Shown here piece by piece: positions 2,181-30,602 of a stretch of DNA of 64,000 bases. Under the pieces are notes generated by a model. The model was not told the DNA's origin and searched no databases. It saw only the letters and a program-made list of their open reading frames with translations. Source of the DNA: Thermodesulfobacteriota bacterium (GTDB taxonomy: Bacteria; Desulfobacterota_D; UBA1144; Nemesobacterales; JAJCZQ01); NCBI GenBank assembly GCA_965215275.1, contig OZ244044.1, positions 128,001 through 192,000 on the forward strand, read 5' to 3'. A program made the translations under genes and the position numbers. The number at the start of each line of letters is the position of its first letter. Within the stretch, counting starts at the first letter, position 1.

Positions 2181-3456
2181 AAGCGGCAGAGTGATAGACC
2201 CTGCCAATAACGTTGATAGTATTAAGAACGTTCTTATCAGTAAGGACCGTATAGAAGGCTATCCGGAAGATATAAAGGCTTTTGGATCAAATCGTCGCAA
2301 GGTAAAGGTTATTGATGCCGCAGGCATGGTCGTGGTCCCCGGGCTGATAGACGTACATGTTCATCTGAGAGAACCTGGGTACGAGCATAAGGAAACGATA
2401 AGAACGGGAACCTTATCCGCGGCGGCAGGAGGTTTCACTTCCATAGCCTGCATGCCAAATACAGACCCTGTTAACGACAATGCATCAGTGACTGATTATA
2501 TTTTACTTAAAGCTCTTACAGAAGGTGTCGTTAATGTTTTTCCGATCGGGGCAATAACCAAAGGTGAAGAAGGAAAAGAGCTTGCCGAGATCGGTGAAAT
2601 GTGCCAGGCAGGCTGTGTAGGGATATCGGACGACGGTATGCCCGTTGTAAATTCAAATCTGATGAGAAGGGCTATGGAGTACGTGAGGTCCTTTGATATT
2701 CCTGTAATTACTCATGCAGAAGACAGATATCTTTCAGACGGAGGCGTTGTTAATGAAGGAAAGTATTCAACTCTTCTTGGATTAAAAGGTATTCCCAGTG
2801 CATCTGAAGAGGTGATGATCGCCAGAGACGTCAGACTGTCTGAACTGACCGGTACTCACCTTCATGTGTGTCACGTGTCAACTGAAGGTTCCGTAAGGAT
2901 AATTAAAGATGCTAAAAAGCGAGGTGTAAAAGTAACTGCAGAGGCAACCCCTCACCATTTTATCCTATCTGATGAGGAGGTGCTGGACTTCAACACTAAT
3001 GCCAAAATGAACCCACCTTTGAGATCTGAAAAGGACGTTAAAGCTATAAGAAAAGGGCTTAAAGATGGTACGATCGATGTGATCGCAACTGATCACGCTC
3101 CGCATAGTGAAGATGAAAAGAACGTGGAGTTTGATAAAGCTCCTTTTGGCATTGTTGGATTAGAAACGGCATTGCCATTATCCCTGACCCTCATAGACAA
3201 AAAGATACTTACCTTAAACCAGGTCATAGAAAAGTTGACTGTGCTGCCTGCCAAGATTATAAACATTGACAGAGGAACTCTCGGTCAAAATGAAATAGCG
3301 GACGTGACCATCTTTGATCCAAACGAAAGTTTCACAGTTGATAAAAGCAAGTTCAGCTCAATGAGCAATAACACTCCTTTTGATAAATGGAAATTGAGAG
3401 GCAAGGTCAAATACACTATCGTCTCCGGCCGAATTGTTTATACAGATAAGGTTTAG
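2161..3456 (+). CDS. pyrC: Dihydroorotase (type I)
   Basis: DVHVHLREPG, KMNPPLR and ATDHAPH motifs; ATG at 2161 follows GGAGG (ORF track starts at 2140). Confidence 0.95.
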   Translation: MKMILIKSGRVIDPANNVDSIKNVLISKDRIEGYPEDIKAFGSNRRKVKVIDAAGMVVVPGLIDVHVHLREPGYEHKETIRTGTLSAAAGGFTSIACMPNTDPVNDNASVTDYILLKALTEGVVNVFPIGAITKGEEGKELAEIGEMCQAGCVGISDDGMPVVNSNLMRRAMEYVRSFDIPVITHAEDRYLSDGGVVNEGKYSTLLGLKGIPSASEEVMIARDVRLSELTGTHLHVCHVSTEGSVRIIKDAKKRGVKVTAEATPHHFILSDEEVLDFNTNAKMNPPLRSEKDVKAIRKGLKDGTIDVIATDHAPHSEDEKNVEFDKAPFGIVGLETALPLSLTLIDKKILTLNQVIEKLTVLPAKIINIDRGTLGQNEIADVTIFDPNESFTVDKSKFSSMSNNTPFDKWKLRGKVKYTIVSGRIVYTDKV

Positions 3457-3650
3457 TTACTTACTAAAGAACTTATTTTTCAAACATGGTCCTCCATGTT
3501 CCTTAGGTAAAAGTCCCATATTACTATTGGATGTAGAATGATACATTAATTAAGGACATTCACTTTAAATAATATAGAAGTTTATATTGTTTAGATTTAT
3601 TCCAAAAAGTTAAATAGAAAACTCCATGAATTTACCAAAGAGGGTTAATT

Positions 3651-4796
3651 ATGGAGACAAAAACAGTTCAAAAAATGTTTAAGTTCAAAGTAGAAAATTT
3701 AGGTTGCATAAAAAAAGGGGAATTCACGCAAAAACCACTGACTATCTTCTGTGGTCCCAATAACAGTGGAAAAACTTGGACTATGTATTCTCTTTATCAT
3801 TTTCTTTGTAAGATCACATCAGCAAAAAAAGATATAACTTTGAGAAAATTTAATACATCTTTATCAAATGATCTGCCAGATGTGTTTAACACCACGTCAG
3901 AAAATATAAAAAACGCTAATTTCAGCTTTAATGTTACAACAGAGCATTTTGATCATATATTAAAAACAGAAATAAATAGTGATAGTAATACTTTCCTTAT
4001 ACCAGCAGAACGAAGCGGTTTGCATTTGTTCTTTAGAGAGTTAAGAACCAGGCGTACTGCTTTATTACATTATGCGTCTAAAGAAAATATTAATATTCAT
4101 CAATTATTAGAGGATGTTATACACTCCCGTTACTCCATTCCTGTTGCAAAATATATTAACTGGTTGAATCAGATGGATGAAATAACAAAGCAAAGAGCGG
4201 ACTTTCACGATTTCGCACAACAAATACAGAAAAAATTAGTAGGTGGTATTTACAAGGTGTCTGCTAAAACCAGTGATATAGAATTTAAACCCTATCAAAA
4301 AAAGCGCGATGGAAATAGCACTCAGTATATGAGTTTGCACCTTACCTCCAGTATTGTGAAAAGCTTGTTCGGGCTTTGGTTCTATTTACAGAATCAAGCA
4401 AAGAAAGGAGATGTTTTAATGATAGATGAACCAGAATTAAATATACACCCGGAGAATCAAAGACAAATCGCACGATTATTGGCTAGATTGGTCAATGCAG
4501 GGCTAAAAGTGGTTATTAGCACACACAGCGATTATATTGTAAGAGAACTCAACTCACTTATTATGCTAAATCAGGATAAAGATAAAAACTTACAAACTAA
4601 ACATAAATATTTGCCAGATGAGATATTAAAAACAGAACAAGTTGCTGCCTATCTATTTGATGATCAAACTATAAAGCCCTTTGAAATATCAGACGATGAT
4701 GGTATTTATGCAACCACTTTTGATAGAGTGATAAAAGATATAAATCAGGTTAACGACGATATCTATTATAGCTTACAGGATAAAGAGTGCGACTGA
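3651..4796 (+). CDS. ABC/AAA-type ATPase (AAA_15/AAA_21-like), AT-rich, probably horizontally acquired
   Basis: Walker A GPNNSGKT, Walker B LMIDEPE and H-loop STHS; visibly more AT-rich than neighbours. Confidence 0.85.
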   Translation: METKTVQKMFKFKVENLGCIKKGEFTQKPLTIFCGPNNSGKTWTMYSLYHFLCKITSAKKDITLRKFNTSLSNDLPDVFNTTSENIKNANFSFNVTTEHFDHILKTEINSDSNTFLIPAERSGLHLFFRELRTRRTALLHYASKENINIHQLLEDVIHSRYSIPVAKYINWLNQMDEITKQRADFHDFAQQIQKKLVGGIYKVSAKTSDIEFKPYQKKRDGNSTQYMSLHLTSSIVKSLFGLWFYLQNQAKKGDVLMIDEPELNIHPENQRQIARLLARLVNAGLKVVISTHSDYIVRELNSLIMLNQDKDKNLQTKHKYLPDEILKTEQVAAYLFDDQTIKPFEISDDDGIYATTFDRVIKDINQVNDDIYYSLQDKECD

Positions 4797-4903
4797 GAAA
4801 TACTATAACAATGCCGAGTTTTCCACCATATCAGTTCTATAGGTCTTTCGGTCTTTGAAGCGTGAAATTTTAAAGAACCACCTGATCCAGACACGCTCTG
4901 TGT

Positions 4904-6523
4904 TTAATACTTCTGAAGATTTTGTGGAACGTACCACTCAAGCAGATCAGGCCCCAAAGGGTAAATAATTACATTTTTAAATCTGTTGTTTACTGCCACC
5001 GTTGACATACCGCAGAAAAGAAAAGTATATGGCTGTTCTTTATGAACTATTTCGGCAAATTCCTTGTAAAGAACAATTCTTTTTTTTCTATCAAATTCCC
5101 GTCTTGCCCTGCTGATTAGCTCGTCGGCTCTTTTGTTTTTAAATCCAACGAAATTGGACCCTCTCTCAGCTTGAGTCGAACTCCATATCTGGTACGGGTC
5201 AGATTCAACTCCCATGCTCCATCCGAGTGTGACGGCATCGAACTTTCTCTCGTTCAATCTTGTGGTAAACACTGCCCATTCCGTTTTTCGTATTTTCATA
5301 ATAATACCCGTCTTATCAAGTTCCTCTTTTAATATCGTTGCTATTTTCTCTCCGGTTTCTGATCCGCTGGGCAAAAGGAACTCGAACTCGAACTTGATTC
5401 CGTTCTTGTCCCTTATTCCATCACCGTTATGATCCGTCCATCCTGCTTCCTCTAATAGTTTTCGTGCTTTTTCAGGATTGAATTCAAAAGGGTCAATGGA
5501 TCTGTTGTACTCGGGACTGTTTATATAAAAAGGGTTGGTGATGATAACGCCCAGATCAAGGAGCACTTTTTTTAAGATAAGTTCTCTGTTCAGAAGATGG
5601 GTCATTGCGGTCCTGACCCTTCTGTCGTTGAAGTAGGGCTTATTTGTGTTCCAGCCTATGAAGCTGTAGTTGGGTCTGTAGTATTTATGTTTATTGAATT
5701 TTTTTTTGAAGGATTGGGTCTTGCTTTGCTTATCCCACTGAATTGGAGTAAGTCCGGAATAATCAAGTTCACCTCTCTTTAAGACCTGAAAAGCCACAGT
5801 TCTGTCGTTTATTATCTTAAAAACGATCTTTTGCAGTTTGGGCTTCTCTCCCCAGTAGTTTTCATTTTTTTCAAGCAGTATCTCACTTCCTGTGGTCCAT
5901 TTAACGAATTTATACGGACCCGTGCCTATGGGCTTTCTTGAGTGAGGGTTTTTATTAAAATCTTTTCCGCTGAAAAGATGAGCGGGAACGATCGGCATTC
6001 CACCGCAGAATTCCAGAGCCAGGAAATAAGGTCTGGAGTAAATGAACTCGACCGTGTGGTCGTCAATGGCTTTTACGTCAAGTATATCCTTATAGTAGTT
6101 CCTTAAGTGTGGAGTATCAACCTCCGGGTCCATTATAGATCTGTATGAAAAAACAACGTCCTTAGAGGTAAAAGGTACTCCGTCCTGCCATTTGACTTTT
6201 TGCTTTAATCTGAACTTGTACCTTAGCTTATCATCGGAAATTTCCCACGACCTTGCAAGAAGAGGTTTGATCTCCAGCGTCTTGTTATCTCTTTTTGTAA
6301 GGGTCTCGTAGATATTACCGTTTATTACTGACTCATAAACATCAGTAGCGGTTATAGGATTTAAAGTTGAAGGTTCGGACGACAGATGGTAGATAAGCCA
6401 TCCACCGGAAGCTTTTTTCCCGTTATTGTTCTTTAGTTCGTTCTGATTACAGGAAGATAGATAAAGACTTCCAAAGATATATATAAATACCAAAAAGATC
6501 TTAGCAGGATTGCTTAACTTCAT
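4904..6523 (-). CDS. Peptide ABC transporter substrate-binding lipoprotein (family 5)
   Basis: Lipobox LSSC; PLLARSWEISDD, GTGPYKFVKW and FNDRRVRTAM segments. Confidence 0.9.
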   Translation of the reverse strand: MKLSNPAKIFLVFIYIFGSLYLSSCNQNELKNNNGKKASGGWLIYHLSSEPSTLNPITATDVYESVINGNIYETLTKRDNKTLEIKPLLARSWEISDDKLRYKFRLKQKVKWQDGVPFTSKDVVFSYRSIMDPEVDTPHLRNYYKDILDVKAIDDHTVEFIYSRPYFLALEFCGGMPIVPAHLFSGKDFNKNPHSRKPIGTGPYKFVKWTTGSEILLEKNENYWGEKPKLQKIVFKIINDRTVAFQVLKRGELDYSGLTPIQWDKQSKTQSFKKKFNKHKYYRPNYSFIGWNTNKPYFNDRRVRTAMTHLLNRELILKKVLLDLGVIITNPFYINSPEYNRSIDPFEFNPEKARKLLEEAGWTDHNGDGIRDKNGIKFEFEFLLPSGSETGEKIATILKEELDKTGIIMKIRKTEWAVFTTRLNERKFDAVTLGWSMGVESDPYQIWSSTQAERGSNFVGFKNKRADELISRARREFDRKKRIVLYKEFAEIVHKEQPYTFLFCGMSTVAVNNRFKNVIIYPLGPDLLEWYVPQNLQKY

Positions 6524-21473: not shown

Positions 21474-22037
21474 ATGGGGATAGCAGAAAAAAATAATAAG
21501 AAAAATATTATTGTGTCAATAAAGACACCTAATGATCTTGGATTGGATTCAAAAACTTTGCAGGATAAAACTAAAGAAATTAAAATACCCAGCATTTCTA
21601 ACGGTTATCATAAATTTTGTTTAATACGAGATGAAAAAATCTTGTATGAAATAAACAATGGATTTATTTCTTGGGTTCTTAAATTAATACCTTATTTTAA
21701 TAATTGTTTTTATCTCGAACATAAATTTTCTGAACATGAGATAGAAGTTGTTTTTGAAGATTCTAGAGATTTATGTTTTTATAGAAATTATTTTTCTAAA
21801 TGGATGGTTGTATATAATAATACTCATACTGGGGATATTAAAGTGTATTATAAAAATGAAAATGCGGGACTCGTAAGTATGATTACATTTCATAACATAA
21901 AAATCAAAGAAATCAGACCTGTAAATTTAAATTTGAATAATGATAATAACATAGAATTTAGCGTAATTTTTACATCTACCAAGATTGAATATGGATTAGA
22001 TTTAAGAAAAGAAAATAATAATGGAGGTAGTAAATGA
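21474..22037 (+). CDS. Hypothetical protein, possibly T4 gp19-like tail tube fold
   Basis: C-terminal half (IEVVFED...YFSKWM...IKVYYKNENAGLVSMITFHNIKIKEIRPVNLNLNNDNNIEFSVIF) follows the gp19 pattern by eye. Confidence 0.5.
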   Translation: MGIAEKNNKKNIIVSIKTPNDLGLDSKTLQDKTKEIKIPSISNGYHKFCLIRDEKILYEINNGFISWVLKLIPYFNNCFYLEHKFSEHEIEVVFEDSRDLCFYRNYFSKWMVVYNNTHTGDIKVYYKNENAGLVSMITFHNIKIKEIRPVNLNLNNDNNIEFSVIFTSTKIEYGLDLRKENNNGGSK

Positions 22038-22501
22038 GTTATCAAATAAGTAAAGAGCAAGTAATCAAATATATATCTGATACTTTATCAAAAGAAAATG
22101 AACTTTTAAATATAGAATATGGAGAATGTAAAACTATTTTAAATGATTTAAATCGAAAGATAAAAGAGCGTGAGGAAAGCGTTAAATATACAAGGGAACA
22201 GATTGCATCTATTGATGCATTGATAAAAGATTTAGAAAAAACATATTCTAACGGTTGGAATAGAAACTTGTTGAAGATCAAAGATGGCGATATAAATATA
22301 GAAACCAAAGAATATATTAAATGTTTATATAATAATGTTCTACCAATGAGAAAAGCAATTATATCACAAAAACTTGCAAATTTAGAAAATGATTTAAATG
22401 TACTGAACGAAGAAAGGTATTCTCTTGTAGAAAAAGTTAATAAAAAGGGATTTGAATATAAGTCTGTTAAATGGATTGATCAAGTAATTAAAAAACAATA
22501 A
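22034..22501 (+). CDS. Hypothetical coiled-coil protein
   Basis: GGAGG RBS, start overlaps the upstream stop, heptad-like E/K/L-rich sequence. Confidence 0.6.
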   Translation: MSYQISKEQVIKYISDTLSKENELLNIEYGECKTILNDLNRKIKEREESVKYTREQIASIDALIKDLEKTYSNGWNRNLLKIKDGDINIETKEYIKCLYNNVLPMRKAIISQKLANLENDLNVLNEERYSLVEKVNKKGFEYKSVKWIDQVIKKQ

Positions 22502-26499: not shown

Positions 26500-27921
26500 A
26501 TGAACAATGAAGCAAAAGGCAGCAGCATTTACAGAATAGCTATAATAGGGTCTGGTCCGGCAGGGTTTTTTGCTGCAGGATATCTGTTCGATAATAAAGA
26601 CCTGAATATTGAAATTGATATGTATGACAAACTTCCAACTCCTTTTGGACTTGTCAGGTCGGGCGTGGCACCCGATCATCAGAAAGTAAAGAGCGTTACA
26701 AGGGTTTATAACAAGATAGCTGAAAATCCAAAGTTCAGATTTTATGGACTGGTCGAATTTGGGCTTCATATTACCCTTGAAGATCTGAAAAAGTTCTATC
26801 ATCAGGTAATTTTTGCCACCGGGACACAGACCGATAGAAGAATGAAGATCTCCGGCGAAGGTCTGGAAAGGAGCTATACTGCTACAGAGTTTGTTGCATG
26901 GTATAACGGACACCCTGCTTTTGTCGATTTTGATTTTGATCTGACTGTCGAAAAAGTGGCGATCGTAGGTATTGGTAACGTAGCAGTGGACGTGGCGAGA
27001 ATACTGTGCAGGTCTGCAAATGAACTTTCAAAAACGGATATTACGGACTATGCGTTCGATAAACTCATAAACAGCAATGTAAAGGAGATATATATGCTCG
27101 GGAGACGTGGACCCGCACAGGCGGCGTTTACAAACCCTGAAATAAGAGAACTTCAAAATCTTGAATCCGCGGATGTCATAACATTAAAGAAAGAAGTTGA
27201 ACTTGATGCTCTAACTACCTGTTATTTATCAAAAAACCCTGTCAGATCAACGGAAAAAAAAGTGCAGATGCTAAAAGAGTTCTCGGAAAACACCTGCGAT
27301 AAGGATAAACGTCTTATAATCAGGTTCCTTGTGTCTCCAGTGGAACTTCTGCCTGATGGAGAAGGAGGTGTTAAAGGTATTAAACTTGCGAAGAACGAAC
27401 TGTTCAGATCCGATGATGGTTCTTTAAGGGCACGTCCCACGGGTGAGCATGAGATATTAGAGGTAGGCACCGTGTTTCGCTCCATAGGGTACTACGGAAC
27501 CCCTCTTGCAGGTGTACCCTTTGATGAGTATCGTGGGATTATACCCAATAAGCAGGGCAGGGTTACCGACGAAAAAGGGAACAGCATTTTAGGACTGTAC
27601 ACGGCAGGATGGATAAAACGCGGACCCACCGGAGTTATAGGAACGAATAAAATGGATTCGTCAGAGACCGTTTCGGCGATGGTCGACGATATTCGCAGCA
27701 ATAAGACCTTTAAACCTGAATTTACCAGTTCAGAGAAAGTGGAAACTTTACTTGAAGAAAGCAAGGGAAGTGATTCGGGTTATATTGACTATGCCGACTG
27801 GCTTGAGATAGATAAGGATGAGGTCAGTAAGGGAAAAATAAAAGGGAAACCTCGGGTGAAATTTACCACTGTTGAGGATATTAGAAAGCTTTTAAATAAA
27901 AAAAGGGAATTATATAGTTAA
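26500..27921 (+). CDS. NADPH:ferredoxin/adrenodoxin reductase-like flavoprotein (FprA-like); last 5 codons supplied by the inserted element
   Basis: GSGPAG, GVAPDH, GIGNVAVDVAR and GWIKRGPTGVIGTN motifs. Confidence 0.9.
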   Translation: MNNEAKGSSIYRIAIIGSGPAGFFAAGYLFDNKDLNIEIDMYDKLPTPFGLVRSGVAPDHQKVKSVTRVYNKIAENPKFRFYGLVEFGLHITLEDLKKFYHQVIFATGTQTDRRMKISGEGLERSYTATEFVAWYNGHPAFVDFDFDLTVEKVAIVGIGNVAVDVARILCRSANELSKTDITDYAFDKLINSNVKEIYMLGRRGPAQAAFTNPEIRELQNLESADVITLKKEVELDALTTCYLSKNPVRSTEKKVQMLKEFSENTCDKDKRLIIRFLVSPVELLPDGEGGVKGIKLAKNELFRSDDGSLRARPTGEHEILEVGTVFRSIGYYGTPLAGVPFDEYRGIIPNKQGRVTDEKGNSILGLYTAGWIKRGPTGVIGTNKMDSSETVSAMVDDIRSNKTFKPEFTSSEKVETLLEESKGSDSGYIDYADWLEIDKDEVSKGKIKGKPRVKFTTVEDIRKLLNKKRELYS

Positions 27922-28060
27922 GTAGACAAACTTACCTATACTGTTCTGAGTGCAGAGTTCCTCTATCCCTGTTCTCTTTTGATCTGATACTCTTAGCACT
28001 CATCGGGAGTATTGCTACCTTATTCCCGCCCGATATGAAGTCTCCTTCATTAAGAGTATT
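27905..28060 (-). ncRNA. Putative omegaRNA scaffold overlapping the tnpB 3' end (boundaries approximate)
   Basis: Stems after RuvC-III: 28035-28050 (GAGA loop), 28002-28007/28029-28034, 27948-27953/27996-28001 and 27913-27940; expected location for TnpB guide RNAs. Confidence 0.45.
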
Positions 28061-29155
28061 GATATTTTTACCTGCATTTATATCCCTGTCTTCTGAATAA
28101 CCGCAATATATACAGTTAAATACTCTTTGATACAAAGGCAGTTTTGGATTTATCTTTCCACATTCAGAACAGGCTCTTGTTGTATAATGAGCTTTAACTA
28201 AAACCAGCTTGCCTCCAGCTATCTCGGCTTTGTAAGCAAGTTGATGTTTGATCTTACCCCATTGCTGTTCCGTTATGGATTTAGCAAGATGATGGTTCTT
28301 TACCATTCCTTGTATATTCAAATCCTCTAATTTTATATGATTACTCTTCTTTACGGTCTCTGTTGTTAATCTGTGTATAGCATTATTTTCACGATCGGTA
28401 GTTCGTTCCCATTCCTTCGCTAACGATAAAACTTTCTTCTTTCTGCTATCAGAACCTTTTACCGCTCTTGAAACAATTCGTTGCTTTCTTTTCAGTTCCT
28501 TCCTGTCTATCCTGATACCGGGAACTTTAGTTCCATCTGAAAAAGCTAATCTGTTTGTTATTCCAAAATCTATCCCTATGGATTTATCCAAAGGTCTCTT
28601 CTTCTCATCTGTAAACTCACACAGAAACTGGAGCTTAATTCTTAACGAACTTTGAATTACTCTTATTATTGTTTTAGGTGCTTTCAAACAAACACACTCT
28701 GGCATACTACCTTTGAAAGATAATCTGCCAAGTCCCTTTATCGTTAAATATGTTCTTCTGCCTGTCTTCTTTATGTTTTTATAATTGTTTGTTTCAAATG
28801 AACGAACTGGTCTGTTTGAACTTTTATATTTAGGTCTGCCAACCTTCCTTACCTTCTTACCTGCTTTTTTATTCCTTAAATAGCTCAAATAAGGACTATA
28901 TGCATTATCCAGTCTTTCCAGAACGCTTCTTTGAGCTACCGCATTAAACTTTTCAAATCCCTTGTCTTGCTCTCGGACCTCAGTTAGTTCGTTAAACTGT
29001 TCGTATTTAGAGATAGTTCTTCCATACCAATCCCAGGATCTTAACCTATGGTACAAGGCACTGTTATACAGATCGGTAAGCTGATTTAAGAATTCATCCA
29101 GCCTTTTATGAAAACCACTATCTGCCTTTACAGTTCGTGTAATCGTTCTAACCAT
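27932..29155 (-). CDS. tnpB: RNA-guided endonuclease TnpB family
   Basis: RuvC-I GIDFG, RuvC-II LEDL, zinc ribbon CSEC...CIYC, RuvC-III DRDINAGKN; N-terminal LYNSAL...SKYEQFNELT. Confidence 0.93.
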   Translation of the reverse strand: MVRTITRTVKADSGFHKRLDEFLNQLTDLYNSALYHRLRSWDWYGRTISKYEQFNELTEVREQDKGFEKFNAVAQRSVLERLDNAYSPYLSYLRNKKAGKKVRKVGRPKYKSSNRPVRSFETNNYKNIKKTGRRTYLTIKGLGRLSFKGSMPECVCLKAPKTIIRVIQSSLRIKLQFLCEFTDEKKRPLDKSIGIDFGITNRLAFSDGTKVPGIRIDRKELKRKQRIVSRAVKGSDSRKKKVLSLAKEWERTTDRENNAIHRLTTETVKKSNHIKLEDLNIQGMVKNHHLAKSITEQQWGKIKHQLAYKAEIAGGKLVLVKAHYTTRACSECGKINPKLPLYQRVFNCIYCGYSEDRDINAGKNINTLNEGDFISGGNKVAILPMSAKSIRSKENRDRGTLHSEQYR

Positions 29156-29161
29156 GCTATA

Positions 29162-29190
29162 ATACTACCATTTTCCTACCAATTTTACAA
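29162..29190 (-). promoter_or_regulatory. Putative leaderless promoter of tnpB
   Basis: Minus strand TTGTAA-17 nt-TAGTAT (TG extended), then 6 nt to the ATG. Confidence 0.45.
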
Positions 29191-29303
29191 GTTCTTTCTT
29201 GTCAACTTAACTATATAATTCCCTAAAAAAACACCAAGCTGAACTACTGTATTAACAGAGTTAATATGTAGATAAACAGCTTGGTGTACTTTGTCGAGCG
29301 TTA

Positions 29304-30602
29304 TTAGCTCTTCTTCCTTTTTGAGATCGGTGAGTATTTCCTTGCTTTATAACCCGTGTAAACCTGGCGTGGTCTTGCGATTCTTCTTTCTGGGTCTTCC
29401 AGCATCTCTTTCCACTGTGCAAGCCATCCCGGTGTTCTTCCAATTGCAAAAAGTACTGTGAACATGCTCGTTGGCAGTCCCATGCTTTGATATATCAGAC
29501 CGGAATAGAAGTCCACGTTCGGATATAAACGACGTTTTACAAAATAATCGTCTTCAAGGGCTATTCTTTCAAGTTCCAGTGCAATATCAAGAAGAGGGTT
29601 CTTACCTGTTTCCTCGAACACGTCATGTGCTGCGTCCTTTATGATCTTGGCTCTGGGATCATATGCTTTATAGACCCTGTGACCAAATCCCATAAGCCTG
29701 AATTCACCCCGCTTTGCCCTTTCGATATAATCAGGGATGTTCTTCTTGGACCCTATTTCTCGAAGCATCTTTAAAACGGCTTCATTTGCACCGCCGTGCA
29801 GCGGACCGTACAATGCCCCTATAGCGGATGCCGTTGCAGTATAAGGATCAGGTTCTGAGCTTCCCACGTTCCTCATGGCGCTCGCACTGCAGTTTTGCTC
29901 ATGATCGGCGTGAAGTATGAACAGAACATCAATGGCTTTCTCGATAGCTTTATTGGGTTTGTATTTTAGTTCGGCCATTTTAAACATCATGTTCAGAAAA
30001 TTCCCTGTATAGCTGAGGTCGTTGTCAGGATATATATAAGGAAGTCCCATGATATGTCTGTAGGAAAATGCCGCAATGGTCGGTACTTTTGCTATAAGAC
30101 GGTTTATCTGAAGTTCATTGTTCTCGTTATCAAAGATCTCCTTGGCTTCAGGATAGAAGGTCGACAGTGCAGCGACCGTACCCATGAGCATTCCCATTGG
30201 ATGTGCGTCATATCTGAAACTGTCAACCAGCTTTTTAATGTTCTCATGAATATAGGTATGATGGGTTATGTTGTGTTCAAAGTCCCTGAGCTGCTTCCGG
30301 TTCGGCAGTTCTCCATTAAGCAGTAAATATGAAACTTCAAGAAAAGAACTTTTTTTAGCAAGTTCTTCGATCGGGTAACCCCTGTAGCGTAAAATACCTT
30401 TTTCACCATCAATGAAGGTAACTTTACTTTTGCATGATGCAGTGTTGCCAAAGGCAGGGTCGTAACTCATCATTCCAAAGTCAGTATCTTTTACCTTGAT
30501 CTGCCTGAGGTCGGTTGCCCTGATGGTATCGTTCTCAACGGGAACCTCATAAACCTTCCCCGTTCTGTTGTCCGTTATCGTCAGTGTACTTTTCTTTGCC
30601 AT
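29304..30602 (-). CDS. gltA: Citrate synthase
   Basis: LHADHEQNCS, GPLHGGANE, GFGHRVYK and YPNVDFYSG motifs. Confidence 0.97.
   Translation of the reverse strand: MAKKSTLTITDNRTGKVYEVPVENDTIRATDLRQIKVKDTDFGMMSYDPAFGNTASCKSKVTFIDGEKGILRYRGYPIEELAKKSSFLEVSYLLLNGELPNRKQLRDFEHNITHHTYIHENIKKLVDSFRYDAHPMGMLMGTVAALSTFYPEAKEIFDNENNELQINRLIAKVPTIAAFSYRHIMGLPYIYPDNDLSYTGNFLNMMFKMAELKYKPNKAIEKAIDVLFILHADHEQNCSASAMRNVGSSEPDPYTATASAIGALYGPLHGGANEAVLKMLREIGSKKNIPDYIERAKRGEFRLMGFGHRVYKAYDPRAKIIKDAAHDVFEETGKNPLLDIALELERIALEDDYFVKRRLYPNVDFYSGLIYQSMGLPTSMFTVLFAIGRTPGWLAQWKEMLEDPERRIARPRQVYTGYKARKYSPISKRKKS

Follow-up and report, generated by a model that had tools for sequence, protein, structure and literature searches.

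TnpB between IS1595-type ends: a transposase-less element of a Thermodesulfobacteriota bacterium and the guide geometry predicted from its target site duplication

How does a gene for TnpB come to be the only gene between IS1595-type transposon ends, how would such an element move, and what would its nuclease cut? These questions are raised by a stretch of 64,000 nt (the window, whose numbering is used for all positions unless a contig is named) from the genome of a Thermodesulfobacteriota bacterium, a single contig of 1.99 Mb that is 99.9% complete and is referred to below as G000. The element occupies positions 27905-29223 (1319 bp, 36% GC against 42% for the genome) and is bounded by 25-bp terminal inverted repeats (TIRs; right, 27905..27929, and left, 29199..29223, both assigned to the minus strand) that agree at 24 of 25 positions, with a single mismatch. 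A perfect 8-bp target site duplication (TSD), TAAAAAAA, stands on both flanks, at 27897..27904 beside the 3′ (right) end of tnpB and at 29224..29231 beside its 5′ (left) end. Only one open reading frame (ORF) of at least 60 aa lies inside, tnpB (29155..27932, minus strand, 407 aa), with its stop codon 2 bp from the right TIR and its start codon 43 bp from the left one. The unit length, the TIRs, the TSD, the sole ORF and the lack of a transposase gene had been described in the original prediction and are confirmed to the base: the element is a transposase-less one with IS1595-type ends and tnpB as its sole gene.

Such an architecture falls outside the classes to which tnpB elements are commonly assigned. 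IS200/IS605 elements have neither TIRs nor a TSD and are moved by an HUH TnpA in cis or in trans, and IS607 elements rely on a serine recombinase, again without TIRs or TSD (PMC13565253). With TIRs, a TSD and no HUH TnpA, the window element does not belong to IS200/IS605 (IS1341 included), and the lack of a serine recombinase together with the TIRs and TSD separates it from IS607. Searches of G000 recovered neither an IS200/IS605 TnpA nor a match to a serine recombinase or resolvase; the sole Y1 match is a weak one, below cut-off, to a single-copy RAYT-like gene of 271 aa. This gene (G000 C1:1882987-1883799; L069 485-1300) has an altered HUH region, and most relatives likewise have just one weak Y1 match of this kind.

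Sibling copies with different TSDs, which the original prediction had proposed to look for, exist in the same genome. G000 holds 19 near-full-length tnpB loci, further tblastn matches being fragments, and they group into subfamily A, with 8 copies of 84-100% identity to the protein of the window element, subfamily B, with 8 copies of about 38-43%, and subfamily C, with 3 copies of about 28%. All 19 lie between TIRs of the GGG(A/G)(A/C)TTATA type; nine have perfect TSDs, all different, and 12 have TSDs with at most one mismatch. A profile of these TIRs finds 193 ends in G000, whereas 600 kb of shuffled sequence yields 0, which, with the sibling copies and their different TSDs, argues that the ends are not a product of chance. 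An empty site, likewise sought at the suggestion of the original prediction, was obtained for two sibling copies: two B elements stand head to head in adjacent 8-mers, 16 bp apart (G000 C1:1616472-1619612; L019), and both are missing from contig 11 of sequencing run X5, where position 5480 of locus L068 is joined straight to 8606 and each 8-mer occurs once. The TSD is therefore a true duplication, and the elements are polymorphic between strains. G000 also has a TSD-bounded mini-element of 326 bp (G000 C1:1742862-1743187), with TG beyond its left TSD, that retains only the 3′ end of tnpB and the RNA region and is possibly a guide-only element.

Mobility would have to be supplied from elsewhere. 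G000 contains 28 IS1595 transposase matches (PF12762), both tested proteins passing NF033547, and none lies within any of the 19 TnpB elements; an autonomous element uniting an IS1595 transposase with tnpB was not found in G000, in the compared coordinates of genus g10 or in 160 metagenome and viral loci, among which the sole IS1595 match (L196) sits outside the TIRs. The ends of subfamily C differ at 0-3 of 26 nt from the end of an element with an intact 326-aa transposase, those of B at 3-7 of 26 nt from transposase-element ends, and those of A at 2-8 of 26 nt from the nearest one, which is frameshifted; the five A copies closest to the window type are 2-5 of 26 nt from the end of that frameshifted element. 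The proposed IS1595 affinity of the ends is thus borne out by the type of TIR and TSD, by matching transposase elements in G000 and by the lack of TnpA, while the intact transposase with matching ends that had been envisaged is present for C, the best match of A being a broken one. The window element, whose ends may be of the ISNwi1 subgroup, likely depends for its movement, in trans, on an IS1595 DDE transposase whose gene lies elsewhere in the genome. The family also carries other cargo in G000: passenger-gene elements lie at C1:1516018-1519071, 1002026-1005187, 1304051-1307389, 1812584-1815955, 1028600-1033127 and 1496306-1500591, their genes including a methyltransferase-like pair and ORFs of 1065-1183 aa, and at C1:17470-21955 a 4486-bp unit, which has a perfect 8-bp TSD, is enclosed by two IS1595-type miniature inverted-repeat transposable elements (MITEs) of ~430 bp and forms a MITE-built composite transposon.

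The protein carried by the window element (27932..29155, minus strand; subfamily A) retains the hallmarks of its family. It matches PF07282 and PF01385 in profile searches, passes NF040570 (guided_TnpB) with 190 bits against a cut-off of 100, and scores under the IS200_TnpB and IS607_TnpB cut-offs; its closest solved relatives include ISDra2-type TnpB entries. The RuvC triad (D196/E277/D358) and the four cysteines of the C4 zinc finger, both noted in the original prediction, are all present, and the DED triad and CCCC zinc cysteines are kept in 16 of 16 long ORFs; two copies, A_1834243 and C_1724035, have a frameshifted tnpB. Ratios of nonsynonymous to synonymous substitution rates are 0.15-0.32 for A, 0.12-0.53 for B and 0.18 for C: TnpB is under purifying selection. 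We infer that the window TnpB is an RNA-guided nuclease with predicted activity.

A guide RNA scaffold (omegaRNA, or right-end RNA, reRNA) is predicted at 27905..28057 (minus strand), where it would overlap the last ~42 tnpB codons and the right TIR. For 12 A and B copies, the final ~155 nt are predicted to form a three-way junction with 3′ stems, in which 10 of 32 pairs are changed on both sides; none of 500 shuffles reaches this count and slid controls attain at most 3, the structure itself having been derived from the same 12 related sequences. Four B copies have an ORF whose stop lies 90 nt ahead of the end, and there the nucleotides are still conserved, in another frame. A GGGA(A) motif, complementary to the TIR tip and placed at 28022..28027 (minus strand) in the window, is located 95-127 nt before the end, within the third helix's loop, in 69 of 74 ends of clade I (defined below; one locus counted twice). 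It is predicted to form a pseudoknot with the TIR tip, the last 4-6 nt of the right TIR providing the 3′ strand; the third and fourth of its pairs hold in 67 of 69 ends, the first two being true by construction. In the published TnpB RNAs a pseudoknot joins that same loop and the nucleotides beside the guide, so that the geometry predicted here would be the one already described. An Rfam search of the element returned nothing near the gathering score.

A further question is whether the ends belong to the TnpB lineage or to a single accident. Matches to TnpB occur in 15 of 60 relatives, 11 of these in genus g10, and a wider profile matches 25 of 119 class members, 22 of them in g10; IS1595 matches are present in all 11 TnpB-bearing g10 genomes of the 60-relative set. 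At 59 A-like g10 loci a script finds both TIRs in 50, the right TIR in 6 and neither in 3, and inspection reveals TIRs in 3 of 3 loci that the script had missed; other g10 loci have both in 18 of 22 cases. A clade that keeps these TIRs in relatives, for which the original prediction had proposed to look, is therefore present. The IS200/IS605/IS607-like ancestry of TnpB invites the explanation that an IS605, IS607 or IS1341 element inserted once into an IS1595 MITE, the nested product then being amplified passively. Such an event accords poorly with spacers of only 43 bp (left TIR to start codon) and 2 bp (stop codon to right TIR), with a conserved RNA structure that extends to the TIR tip, with the retention of TIRs at A-like g10 loci (50 of 59 by script and 3 of 3 misses on inspection) and with purifying selection on TnpB. 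Furthermore, among 95 ORFs examined, 0 of 22 Y1-adjacent TnpBs carry this end, and control TnpBs without these ends are Y1-adjacent in G056 and G032 and of IS607 type in G057. Homologs with IS605/IS607 ends inside the TIRs, or a want of further copies, would have favoured the nested insertion, and neither was encountered; the explanation is largely refuted and retains next to no probability.

Beyond g10, the same kind of TIR pair occurs in 5 of 80 viral-contig loci and in metagenome locus L196. The phage-like contig TnpBs with IS1595-type TIRs (L196, L259, L278, L279/L280, L318) have a perfect TSD in one case and, in the flank numbering explained below, G at -9 in 5 of 5 distinct sites. In trees the TIR-bounded TnpBs fall into clade I (A, B and g10-A, together with the 16 closest proteins, P0005-P0020, which group with them by sequence), clade II (C and g10-C), a phage-contig clade and L318. 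An approximately unbiased (AU) test rejects a single group of all TIR-bounded TnpBs (p-AU 0.0004, 38 rows; LG+G4 without mixture, the groups having been named after earlier trees were seen), and a common origin of just clades I and II is not rejected (p-AU 0.055, 30 rows). Because the TIR-bounded TnpBs fall into three to four lineages, TnpB has likely been captured repeatedly by IS1595 ends. A scan of genome contigs yielded eight distant loci, none with these ends, and the best matches in a plasmid collection are ~28-38% identical; a TIR-like end at L247 was rejected as coding sequence. Two loci of another kind deserve mention. At L125 369-539 (G019; the same as L042), a TnpB of 405 aa that falls inside clade II and has no TIR is followed, just past its stop codon, by three 39-nt repeats with 27-nt spacers, possibly a young association with CRISPR that derives from the IS1595-borne clade, and L072 (~3418-5300, in a Dehalococcoidia metagenome-assembled genome) has a 570-aa TnpB/Cas12-like ORF directly followed by a CRISPR-like array.

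A further set of observations concerns the bases just outside the elements. With tnpB oriented left to right, -10 and -9 denote the two bases directly outside the left TSD; in the window these are the TG at 29232..29233 (minus strand), which is host DNA outside the element. Subfamily A has TG at -10/-9 in 6 of 8 copies and G at -9 in 7 of 8, compared with TG in 1 of 8 on its right side and in 5 of 156 non-TnpB ends (p 5e-7 against the left side of A). In subfamily B, every copy (8 of 8) carries A at -9, against 69 of 156 non-TnpB ends (p 0.002), and subfamily C has TA in 3 of 3, against 31 of 156 (p 0.009). Among A-like g10 loci, G stands at -9 on the left in 30 of 31 distinct sites and on the right in 7 of 31 (32 TSD-keeping loci, one shared site dropped; the sites differ). 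The C-like clade of g10 has G at -10 in 10 of 12 left flanks against 2 of 12 right flanks, a purine at -9 in 12 of 12 against 4 of 12, and A as the first TSD base in 12 of 12. Transposase-element ends were recovered in 1 of 11 loci of the relatives, where the segments used were probably too short, and provide no flank control there.

A bias of this kind might reflect a one-sided target preference of each subfamily's transposase, with TnpB as a passenger that has a longer target-adjacent motif (TAM) or some other job. TA likewise adjoins one of the two ends of the transposase element that most resembles C in its ends (n=1), and a cognate transposase has yet to be assigned to A, both of which would suit this explanation. 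However, tnpB-free ends of the same TIR subtype as A have TG in 1 of 25 cases and G at -9 in 3 of 25, and the ends of TSD-bounded non-TnpB elements have TG in 0 of 26 and G at -9 in 1 of 26; moreover, the bias is coupled to the orientation of tnpB, and G is found at -9 beside several variants of the TIR as well as at every distinct viral-contig site (4 of 4). We consider a transposase preference unlikely: the flank motif tracks TnpB lineage and orientation, not TIR type.

The position of the motif is also the one that a TAM would need to have were the guide to begin with the first TSD base. Subfamily-specific bases in the 5′ flank, together with a 3′ scaffold predicted to form a pseudoknot with the TIR tip, make it likely that the TSD starts the guide and that the TAM lies outside the TSD, the motif of one or two bases then being likely an unusually short recognition site of the cutter. 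For the window copy, the predicted guide of ~20 nt (27885..27904, minus strand) would comprise the right TSD as its first 8 nt, or seed, followed by host flank. Elsewhere in the genome, the guides of 20 copies have no off-site target under 3 mismatches in 20, and the window guide has no other full match.

On these grounds we favour, as rather probable, an element with IS1595 ends that is moved in trans and whose TnpB is predicted to cut the element's own empty site, with a guide taken from the TSD and, for the window subfamily, TG outside it as TAM. A transposase would recognise the TIRs in trans and insert the element into AT-rich DNA, duplicating 8 bp; the tnpB transcript would then continue past the right TIR into flanking DNA, with a scaffold that stops at the TIR tip and its pseudoknot and a guide that consists of TSD and flank. 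The empty site (TAM-TSD-flank) would be cut and the filled site spared, since its left junction matches just 8 nt of the guide and its right junction presents CCC instead of the TAM. Insertions beside a TAM would be kept or spread, either through repair templated by an occupied copy or because cells die when they lose the element, and the flank bias is proposed to arise because only such insertions are retained or spread. Cutting of vacant sites, or homing, is a published role of IS605 TnpB.

Several observations weigh against this reading. IS1595 may copy out replicatively, leaving the donor filled, which makes the origin of empty sites a weak point. Many tnpB-free IS1595 elements persist in G000, so that retention after the fact is a demanding explanation for a bias of 30 in 31, and tnpB copies without a TAM hardly exist although unprotected IS1595 elements persist. 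At the level of individual copies, the window guide would open with seven U, at which transcription could terminate early; its empty allele was seen in none of four runs (coverage of X7 and X8 being patchy), the site being occupied in X3 and X5, where the sequence runs into the element from both flanks, and the search for a vacant site thus succeeded for the sibling B copies and not for the window copy. No TSD is recognisable in 7 of the 19 G000 copies, and an exact, intact cognate transposase for subfamily A is absent from G000, three A copies being 5-8 of 26 nt off. The flank statistics have limits of their own: the right side of B has A in 5 of 8 copies, the biases of B and C are drawn from AT-rich DNA with sample sizes of 8 and 3, and the g10 relatives are not independent, owing to kinship. 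Lastly, covariation of the pseudoknot is weak, position 5 agreeing in 53 of 69 ends against 48.6 after shuffling.

The persistence of unprotected IS1595 elements (156 ends) beside scarce TAM-less tnpB copies keeps guided insertion open, in which a complex of TnpB and RNA would steer the IS1595 transposase to a TAM 5′ of the 8 bp to be duplicated, so that the bias would be made at integration. A near-absolute bias (30 of 31) that follows TnpB lineage and not TIR subtype is what such steering would produce. To our knowledge, however, there is no precedent for a TnpB that directs a DDE transposase; a new site would have no matching guide, each of three TnpB types in one cell would have to find its own element, and the catalytic residues are intact, unlike those of the dead effectors of RNA-guided transposons. 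Guided insertion is accordingly judged improbable.

Taking the lineages together with their flanks leads to a wider proposal, to which we would give somewhat less than an even chance: at least three captures of TnpB by IS1595 would each have led to a third way of coping with the TSD, in which the TSD serves as guide seed, the TIR tip closes the pseudoknot and the TAM has contracted to 1-2 bases (TG/G, A, TA/GR), perhaps because the nuclease was freed from a fixed transposase target. In its boldest form, with TnpB also positioning the transposase at its TAM during insertion, the proposal is a long shot.

The genomic setting of the window copy adds some detail. The element is inserted in the last codons of a host flavoprotein reductase gene (Pyr_redox_2; 26500..27921, plus strand), the TIR providing its stop codon, and on the other side a convergent host citrate synthase gene (29304..30602, minus strand) follows a terminator-like inverted repeat (29226-29292) that abuts the left TSD. 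G001, of the same genus, has both host genes adjacent without the element and is too diverged to reveal the 8-mer. Between left TIR and start codon (29156-29198), and in sibling copies, an AT-rich -10-like box stands ~5-9 nt before the tnpB start, and neither A nor C has a clear ribosome site; the position of the box and the lack of a ribosome site suggest that the tnpB mRNA may be leaderless. A promoter scan called 4 sites against 4.4 expected, none of them before tnpB, and did not call the -10-like box. Elsewhere in the window, two ORFs (187 and 155 aa) without a Pfam match lie downstream of a DNA ligase (21474-22501).

These observations touch on questions posed in reviews, namely why bacterial TnpB seldom pairs with DDE transposases and how guide and TAM cope with a variable TSD. 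G000 offers a built-in test, as it combines three TnpB subfamilies, three flank motifs, one transposase pool and 156 motif-free control ends; the flank motifs predict TAM and guide start for each enzyme, and retention versus guided insertion becomes testable. If the proposal is true, compact nucleases of ~400 aa, likely with TAMs of one or two bases, would permit nearly unrestricted targeting; the TAM limits current TnpB editors, and its relaxation is treated as an engineering goal (PMC13639567).

Among known systems, the closest precedents are already in print, and the suggestion that the system was undescribed does not hold in that form. Altae-Tran 2023 reported six DDE-linked TnpB branches (DDE-1 to DDE-6) with inverted repeats, and solo TnpBs with matching ends that were likely moved in trans (PMC10691335). 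Its DDE-5 branch has, by a single statement in the supplement, a 'TA motif 8bp upstream' of the end, which fits the flank geometry found here; subfamily C shares the TA (3 of 3), whereas subfamily A has TG, with TA in 0 of 8. Those branches require a DDE gene within 1 kb, which no element here has, and in the parts of the source available the main text names IS630 (DDE-6) only, IS1595 appears solely in a supplementary list of hidden Markov models, and the motif is not read as a TAM. Prokaryotic pairing of TnpB with DDE transposases is otherwise described as rare, with ISL2, IS630 and IS1031 as partners (PMC13565253). No publication linking IS1595 to TnpB was found in a search that left out most subscription papers and ISfinder, and the supplements of Altae-Tran may already include the family. 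The window family is real and well supported, and what it adds to the known DDE-linked TnpBs is a named partner family (IS1595), a likely repeated capture, and a predicted TAM and guide geometry that is legible in the genome sequence and directly testable.

ISDra2-type systems (IS200/IS605, IS1341, IS607) share with the window family the TnpB fold and catalytic triad and, as predicted for the latter, an RNA scaffold over the 3′ end of the gene and the right end, a tip pseudoknot, a TAM to the left of the element and a guide from the right flank. In contrast, the window family has TIRs and an 8-bp TSD instead of an HUH or serine TnpA and hairpin ends, the TSD separates the candidate TAM from the element, and this TAM is no fixed transposase target and has an apparent length of 1-2 nt compared with 4-5. 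IS1595 elements are described as inserting into AT-rich targets, with TIRs of 25 bp, direct repeats of 8 bp and an intermediate that is circular and may be replicative (PMC5704250), and the transporter insertion sequences and mobile insertion cassettes of this family (tIS/MIC; MTnSag1, tISCpe8) resemble the window family in TIRs, repeats, AT-rich targets and passenger genes, many such elements being present in G000; they differ in that the cargo here is an RNA-guided nuclease, that its predicted RNA includes the TIR and that the flank bias is missing from the other elements. Fanzor1 and Fanzor2* (e.g., the SfAV non-autonomous element) likewise place a lone TnpB-family nuclease within TIRs with TSDs, after repeated DDE capture. 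In Fanzor the TSD is reported to be absorbed into the scaffold and the TAM (Yoon et al. 2023, PMC10711439), whereas here it is variable and predicted to form the guide seed, the candidate TAM lying outside it.

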